A DNA stretch of 25,695 bases, taken from contig JBFLYE010000186.1 in NCBI GenBank assembly GCA_040756715.1, positions 1 to 25,695 of the forward strand. The letters run 5' to 3'. Source of the stretch: a bacterium. Lineage in GTDB: Bacteria > UBA9089 > UBA9088. Made by a program: the position numbers and the translations under genes. The notes beneath the pieces are model-generated. The model searched no databases. It saw nothing but the letters and a program-made list of their open reading frames with translations, and was not told the DNA's origin. Below are positions 11,436 to 11,520 of this stretch, piece after piece; positions within the stretch are counted from its first letter, which is position 1; every line of letters begins with the position of its first letter.

Positions 11436-11520
11436 ATGCGGAATGCGGAATGCGGAATGCGGAATGTAAAGGCCTGTTGTCTGTTGTCTGTTGTCTGTTG
11501 TCTGTTGTCTGTTGTCTGTT
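11436..11520 (+). repeat. Composite heptamer array [ATGCGGA]x4+ATGTAAA, then [CTGTTGT]x6+CTGTT, encoding the FlgH signal peptide
   Basis: Read directly: 11436-11470 and 11474-11520. Confidence 0.96.

Follow-up and report, generated by a model that had tools for sequence, protein, structure and literature searches.

The window, meaning the whole stretch of 25,695 nucleotides analyzed here, is contig C186 of a metagenome-assembled genome (G000; 1.55 Mb in 218 contigs, 37% GC, 96% complete). Pfam matches identify three neighboring genes in it as flgA, flgH, and flgI (Table 1). Tandem Repeats Finder (TRF) calls two perfect 7-base arrays at the 5′ end of flgH, which are separated by a 7-nt spacer and fall within codons 1–29, before the mature protein. 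An imperfect AATGCGG-like array and a GGCTATT array follow one another at the start of flgI, and flgA carries two arrays of its own. The AATGCGG arrays of flgH and flgI are both followed by TAA(A)GGC. When translated, the arrays of all three genes yield leaders in which a polar heptad is followed by a hydrophobic heptad.

Table 1. Sequence features around the start of flgH, in window coordinates
Feature	Position	Strand	Basis and remarks
flgA	10734..11435	+	Pfam
flgA 5′ arrays (GAGTCAA)x4.0 and (GCTATTG)x2.9	10750..10798	+	TRF; 10750-10777 and 10779-10798
Shine-Dalgarno GGAGG of flgH	11423..11427	+	Sequence; 8 nt upstream of ATG 11436
flgA stop codon TAA	11433..11435	+	Directly adjoins the flgH start (TAAATG)
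(AATGCGG)x4.6	11435..11466	+	TRF, 32 nt, perfect (100%); polar heptad MRNAECG, putative n-region
flgH coding sequence	11436..12050	+	Pfam FlgH domain from residue 31; conserved mature part from SLWLEG
TAA	11467..11469	+	Immediately 3′ of the last array ATG; closes the frame of ATG 11443 and ATG 11464 (frame +1)
(CTGTTGT)x6.7	11474..11520	+	TRF, 47 nt, perfect (100%); hydrophobic heptad LLSVVCC, putative h-region
AATGCGG-like x4.6 array, imperfect (84%)	12052..12083	+	TRF; start of flgI
flgI coding sequence	12053..13087	+	Pfam, translation
Spacer with TAA 12084-12086 and TAA 12091-12093	12084..12093	+	Closes flgI frames +1 and +2, i.e. both alternatives
(GGCTATT)x4.6	12094..12125	+	Heptad GYWLLAI, putative h-region of the FlgI signal peptide

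The original prediction had drawn attention to start codons in several frames upstream of these repeats. We confirm on the sequence the five flgH ATGs (11436, 11443, 11450, 11457, and 11464, all within the AATGCGG array), the flgI starts (ATG, ATG, GTG, ATG, and ATG at 12053, 12060, 12067, 12074, and 12081), the GGAGG motif, and the perfect flgH arrays. The 6.7 copies given for CTGTTGT are right; the four given for GGCTATT are 4.6 by TRF. The ATGs of flgA (10734 and 10737) occupy a single frame only. Inspected by eye, the FlgH leader comprises an n-region with two arginines and one lysine, a hydrophobic stretch of 17 residues, and the residues FA/ES before the conserved SLWLEG.

The two arrays of a leader might also act at the level of the mRNA, by pairing into a hairpin that hides the Shine-Dalgarno sequence and the start codons, so that flgH would be translated only when ribosomes finishing flgA open the hairpin and the repeats would be kept for structure. 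The segment 11415-11535 folds with −36 kcal/mol (z = −3.5 against dinucleotide shuffles), GCGGA pairs with UCUGU in every unit, and some relatives have strongly complementary array pairs (z = −9.7 for flgI in L024 and −4.5 for flgI in L023). When the controls preserve the arrays, however, an equally good fold is reached by 36 of the 105 permutations of the unit and by 20% of random heptamers that code for hydrophobic residues; flgI and flgA do no better than such controls, and several relatives are without array-to-array pairing. A tendency of polar codons to be complementary to hydrophobic ones is, moreover, built into the genetic code. We reject an mRNA hairpin in this window, its significance against dinucleotide shuffles being lost under array-preserving controls, and regard translational control of this kind as very unlikely.

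Start codons in three frames and simulated unit changes

ATGs occur in all three frames of flgH because the 7-base unit holds an ATG and 7 mod 3 equals 1; once such a unit is repeated at least three times, ATGs in every frame are unavoidable. A stop-free 7-base unit reads as the identical heptad in each frame, and we compute that 69% of all possible heptamers are stop-free when arrayed. Start codons in every frame ahead of a slippery repeat can thus be a by-product of repeat arithmetic and, as part of the reading that we favor below, those of flgH probably are by-products of an ATG-containing unit rather than an evolved buffer. Counted by eye, ATG-bearing units make up ∼5/19 of the arrays at gene starts (about 26%) versus ∼5/43 of those inside genes (about 12%), a mild difference that would speak against a by-product.

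It had been proposed that the gain or loss of a unit would bring another start codon into frame while the leader remained basic and then hydrophobic. We simulated such gains and losses in silico in the arrays of flgH and flgI, and the outcome depends on the array. Changes in the first flgH array always leave an in-frame ATG, but no longer the one adjacent to the Shine-Dalgarno sequence; translation from the SD-adjacent ATG, the one coupled to the stop of flgA, then ends unproductively after 8–37 codons. When the CTGTTGT array loses one unit or gains two, ATG 11450 rescues the frame and the leader is still basic and then hydrophobic. A gain of one unit or a loss of two leaves no productive ATG in flgH, and in flgI we find no ATG that would rescue a change of the GGCTATT array by one unit in either direction. 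The proposal is thus borne out in part: flgH is buffered against a frameshift in two of its three phases, flgI has no such buffer, and in neither gene do all three frames have a productive start ahead of the slippery array.

Heptamer arrays throughout the genome

Arrays of this kind are not confined to the flagellar genes. Perfect arrays of at least three copies number 45 at period 7, 10 at period 8, two at period 6, and none at periods 9–11, and the arrays are far beyond chance. With TRF we obtain 480 non-redundant period-7 arrays among 1465 arrays. The AATTCAA class, 229 of the period-7 arrays, is part of a dispersed element of ∼300 bp, which is bounded by imperfect inverted ends (TATAGT..TTCCAT.AC) and contains two heptamer arrays of the AATTCAA type in inverted orientation. 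A 32-nt core of this element has at least 81 exact occurrences, many contigs end in the element, and the window itself begins inside one copy (positions 1-145).

Outside the dispersed element, period-7 arrays cluster at 31–35 nt, or ∼4.6 units. When arrays of period 7 or 8 with a TRF score of at least 40 are tallied by position, again leaving out the element, 100 of the 137 (73%) fall within ORFs (38 of them in codons 1–40, 54 farther inside, and 8 at the 3′ end), and the other 37 are intergenic. Arrays of 7- or 8-base units write the h-region of at least 14 proteins predicted to be exported or membrane-bound, and polar arrays are found at the N terminus of several cytoplasmic proteins. Internal arrays that keep the frame are found in MnmG, AroE, AroA, MurG, IspE, ProS, CarB, and others. 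The AATGCGG type occurs at 16 loci, all of 22–35 nt and mostly inside housekeeping genes, many of them for cytoplasmic enzymes, including MnmG, AroE, and a Val/Leu-tRNA-synthetase-like gene; two of the arrays are antisense. At such internal or antisense positions the ATGs cannot be starts.

Some h-regions are written by octamers instead (TTTGTGCC and related units, peptide LCAFVPLC); such arrays are on contigs C15, C41, C51, C70, and C140 and in L022 (560-610). Paralogues of a DUF2723-like membrane glycosyltransferase (C44, C89, C197, and C133) carry different arrays at the same loop position, with the heptads DSRLPTP, DSRLKTP, and GLRLKAS. Elsewhere in the window, (AATGCAA)x4.4 at 2392-2422 spans the junction between the end of an ETF-β-like gene and the start of a ferredoxin-ETF-α gene, with several ATGs before the conserved start MIKIIPELC.

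Searches of the 96%-complete assembly for the families RVT_1 and Y1_Tnp returned no match; with neither a reverse transcriptase nor a Y1 transposase found in the assembly, we reject an origin of the arrays from a retroelement or a REP-type transposase.

Turnover and reading frame among relatives

We compared the arrays of G000 with those of two genomes of the same genus (G001 and G002), one of the same family (G003), and others. At orthologous sites in MnmG, IspE, ProS, and MurG, several species have an array of nearly the same length written in different units (AATGCGG, ATTGCAA, GAGTCAA-like, or AATTCAA-like), and G003 has decayed relics. G000 and G001 have one and the same MurG array, the IspE array of G000 is longer by exactly three units, and AroA is extended by 33 nt in G000 and G001 only and AroE by 27 nt in G000 only. 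Judged by these sequence comparisons, the turnover at orthologous sites is concerted evolution under frame constraint. Of the 25 genomes of the phylum, 8, from four families, have three exact tandem copies of AATGCGG (usually four full units), and none of 126 genomes of other phyla has them; the reversed pattern, used as a control, gave no hit.

The flagellar leaders behave in the same way. FlgH homologues have the mature part from SLWLEG in common, preceded by a lineage-specific leader heptad or by a plain signal peptide, as in G003. A genome with ∼95% DNA identity to G000 (GCA_040757735.1) has other arrays at flgA, flgH, and flgI: flgA carries another polar array, flgI has different arrays between conserved flanks, and flgH starts as in G001 and G002, with AAAATGC in 1.7 copies, three units fewer than the 4.7 of G002. 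The only same-unit series among the relatives (AAAATGC in 4.7, 2.7, and 1.7 copies) keeps the frame. Since the AATGCGG array is missing from this ∼95% identical genome, it is a recent acquisition of the G000 lineage at flgH and flgI. An octamer array of the TTTGTGCC type stands in for GGCTATT in flgI of the ∼95% identical genome. The same assembly contains a second flgI contig (L062, contig 418) that starts right after the signal-peptide region; it is only 84% identical to the first, and the bin therefore mixes two organisms. A long leader is that of flgI in G001 (L002, 1261-1549), where ∼290 nt of heptamer arrays, including (GACTCAA)x17, code for a polar extension of ∼95 amino acids before the hydrophobic core, with a single ATG. 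Farther along in G001, the DNA after flgJ (L002, 2853-4008) is 95% identical to the ETF-α region of the window (2460-3622) in reverse orientation, a rearrangement relative to G000.

Could the arrays, or their copy numbers, be artifacts of short-read metagenome assembly? Many contigs end at repeats in both this and the sister assembly, and array lengths are tight near 32 nt. Arrays inside genes nevertheless keep the reading frame, independent assemblies have arrays at the same sites (the identical MurG array being one case), and arrays of 32–47 nt are shorter than a read. With internal arrays in frame and recurring in independent assemblies, we reject assembly collapse as the source of the 32-nt mode and consider an artifactual origin extremely improbable. 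Assemblies of several genomes do seem to break at arrays; in G001 (contigs C67 and C152/C6) the contig end in ProS coincides exactly with the position of the G000 array (residue 239).

The arrays themselves appear to be unstable. Support comes from the 3-unit differences between orthologues, from the contigs of GCA_040757735.1, which end or begin a few bases from the flgH and flgI arrays, and from a pair of paralogues in G000. These paralogues (C9, 493-514, and C106, 2055-2083), which share 92.7% identity and code for a prenyltransferase-repeat-like surface protein, have AATGCGG arrays that differ in length by exactly one unit; it is at this array that C9 is shifted out of frame. A genome-wide scan for genes split at arrays gave gene junctions only, besides this single case, and we rejected array-frameshifted genes as a sign of OFF states.

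Instability of this kind is the premise of the idea that flgH and flgI are contingency loci, in which slippage alters the in-frame ATG and its distance from the Shine-Dalgarno sequence and so grades or switches L-ring and P-ring output in the population. The unit length is not divisible by three, and perfect arrays of 4.6–6.7 units are intrinsically mutable. The in-frame ATGs that remain after changes in the first array, and the rescue of −1 and +2 CTGTTGT changes by ATG 11450 with a plausible leader, would suit such a locus. The instability seen in the relatives and in the one frameshifted paralogue also speaks for it, and the breaks of sister-assembly contigs at the flgH and flgI arrays could reflect population heterogeneity.

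Two known systems set a precedent for 5′ coding repeats acting in this manner. In neuO of E. coli K1 (prophage CUS-3) a 5′ coding repeat of the unit AAGACTC varies from 3 to 53 copies, variants differing by one repeat are measurable within a single culture, and 65.6% of genomes are OFF. The flgH arrangement resembles neuO in having a 7-base unit just after the start that codes for a polar heptad, with protein made only from frame-keeping copy numbers, and the flgI leader unit of G001, (GACTCAA)x17, is the neuO repeat unit. In Neisseria opa genes, which belong to a surface-antigen family, CTCTT coding repeats in the leader peptide switch expression at ∼10⁻³ per generation; like these, the repeats described here lie downstream of the start codon and ahead of the mature protein, and code for the hydrophobic part of a putative signal peptide.

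There are differences as well. In all 19 assembled instances from eight genomes, the starts of flgA, flgH, and flgI are in frame from the first ATG, and the frequency of OFF alleles is thus 0/19, as against the 65.6% of neuO; frame conservation measured against neuO provides a clear comparative criterion against phase variation. Unlike in neuO, the arrays have 4.6–6.7 units, the unit itself changes from one close relative to the next, and that of G000 contains an ATG. Unlike the opa family, the genes concerned are conserved flagellar ring components. The locus itself also argues against a contingency function: TAA 11467 kills one flgH phase, both alternative flgI phases are closed, and flgA, as noted, has its ATGs in one frame. 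Multi-frame starts are not conserved among the relatives examined, most of which have only one ATG; in G001, G002, and G005, ATGs in alternative frames run into a stop after 1–13 codons. The AATGCGG array is absent from the ∼95% identical genome, AATGCGG-type arrays occur in many unrelated genes, and it is hard to see what a cell would gain from losing ring proteins by degrees.

We consider a contingency locus improbable. The graded L/P-ring output of the original prediction is not borne out, given multi-frame ATGs that are unconserved, an array type found genome-wide, and the lack of OFF alleles among the 19 starts, and a switch or rheostat specific to the L and P rings is unsupported. Slippage at these arrays fits ordinary instability that is filtered by selection; low-frequency variants with one unit more or less are possible in the population. 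A scan of public metagenomes and genomes for strain variants of FlgH returned one distant locus and one known locus only. Among public sequencing runs none was listed for a 1.6-kb stretch of the locus, and a groundwater run listed for the mature part of flgH holds contigs with other AATGCGG-like arrays in foreign flanks, not this locus.

Origin of the flgH leader and known heptameric repeats

Taken together, it is probable that 11436-11520 codes for a repeat-built Sec signal peptide of FlgH, and that it represents one case of a phylum-wide heptamer-repeat phenomenon. (AATGCGG)x4.6 would code for the charged n-region, (CTGTTGT)x6.7 for the hydrophobic core, and FA/ES before SLWLEG would form the cleavage region. 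The flgA TAA abuts ATG 11436, which makes this ATG the likely coupled start, and translation would begin there, 8 nt from GGAGG. Both flgH arrays would be local members of the genome- and phylum-wide population of 7-base (and some 8-base) arrays of ∼4.6 units and 31–35 nt. Such arrays may arise and turn over fast, by slippage and by replacement or copying, and may survive only at tolerant protein sites, namely the n- and h-regions of signal peptides, surface loops, and gene junctions. The survivors would be in-frame, stop-free versions only, presumably without a regulatory role.

For annotation, this would mean that the repeat leaders are real coding sequence and that ATG 11436 is the start of flgH; gene callers often truncate such genes, the relatives of FlgH being called at 172–176 amino acids. 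The wider phenomenon would be a mutational process that writes protein sequence and is not specific to flagellar rings. A single heptamer array is conserved across a candidate phylum, is replaced between ∼95% identical genomes, and lies in frame inside essential genes.

The concentration of arrays at ∼32–33 nt could also be read differently. Arrays of the AATGCGG type and their derivatives might be an active, phylum-restricted, ORF-compatible element, which is copied between loci or re-homogenized in 3-unit steps and overwrites loops and signal peptides by gene conversion or by a dedicated enzyme. A recent copying of the version with ATGs to both flgH and flgI would then have created a start region that tolerates its own slippage and modulates initiation. 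We consider this possible but unlikely. An analogy exists in the palindromic elements of Rickettsia, which are reportedly in-frame, selfish inserts in the form of palindromes of about 100–150 bp. As in Rickettsia, the elements discussed here are short, dispersed, and in frame at tolerant sites of conserved genes, as exemplified by the insertions in AroA and AroE. Unlike them, they are ∼32-nt tandem heptamers that have no significant hairpin potential in the window, and the searches of the assembly gave neither a transposase nor a reverse transcriptase.

The reading of flgH as a repeat-built signal peptide places it with the over-represented heptameric repeats of bacteria, which have a preferred size of four units, differ from one close relative to another, and are proposed to arise by polymerase slippage (PMC4692102). 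The heptanucleotides of Xanthomonas (GGGAATC), Nostoc (GGGGAYT), and Calothrix are rich in G and lie mostly between genes, with fewer than expected in coding DNA (PMC4692102). The arrays of G000 share with these a genome-wide excess of period 7, a size of about four units, and variation in sequence and length at the same site in close relatives. They differ from those of Xanthomonas and Nostoc in that 73% of the arrays outside the dispersed element are in ORFs and in frame, many of them coding for predicted signal peptides or loops; it is the unusually frequent translation of repeats that sets this lineage apart. In marine Beggiatoaceae, direct repeats of TAACTGA form lineage-restricted sets of 2–6 copies at gene starts (PMC4679880). 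Many of the heptamer sets described here are likewise found at gene starts and are lineage-restricted. The Beggiatoaceae repeats are untranslated, being placed a few bases before the start codon, and consist of one unit, whereas the arrays in and around flgH are translated and many different units coexist.
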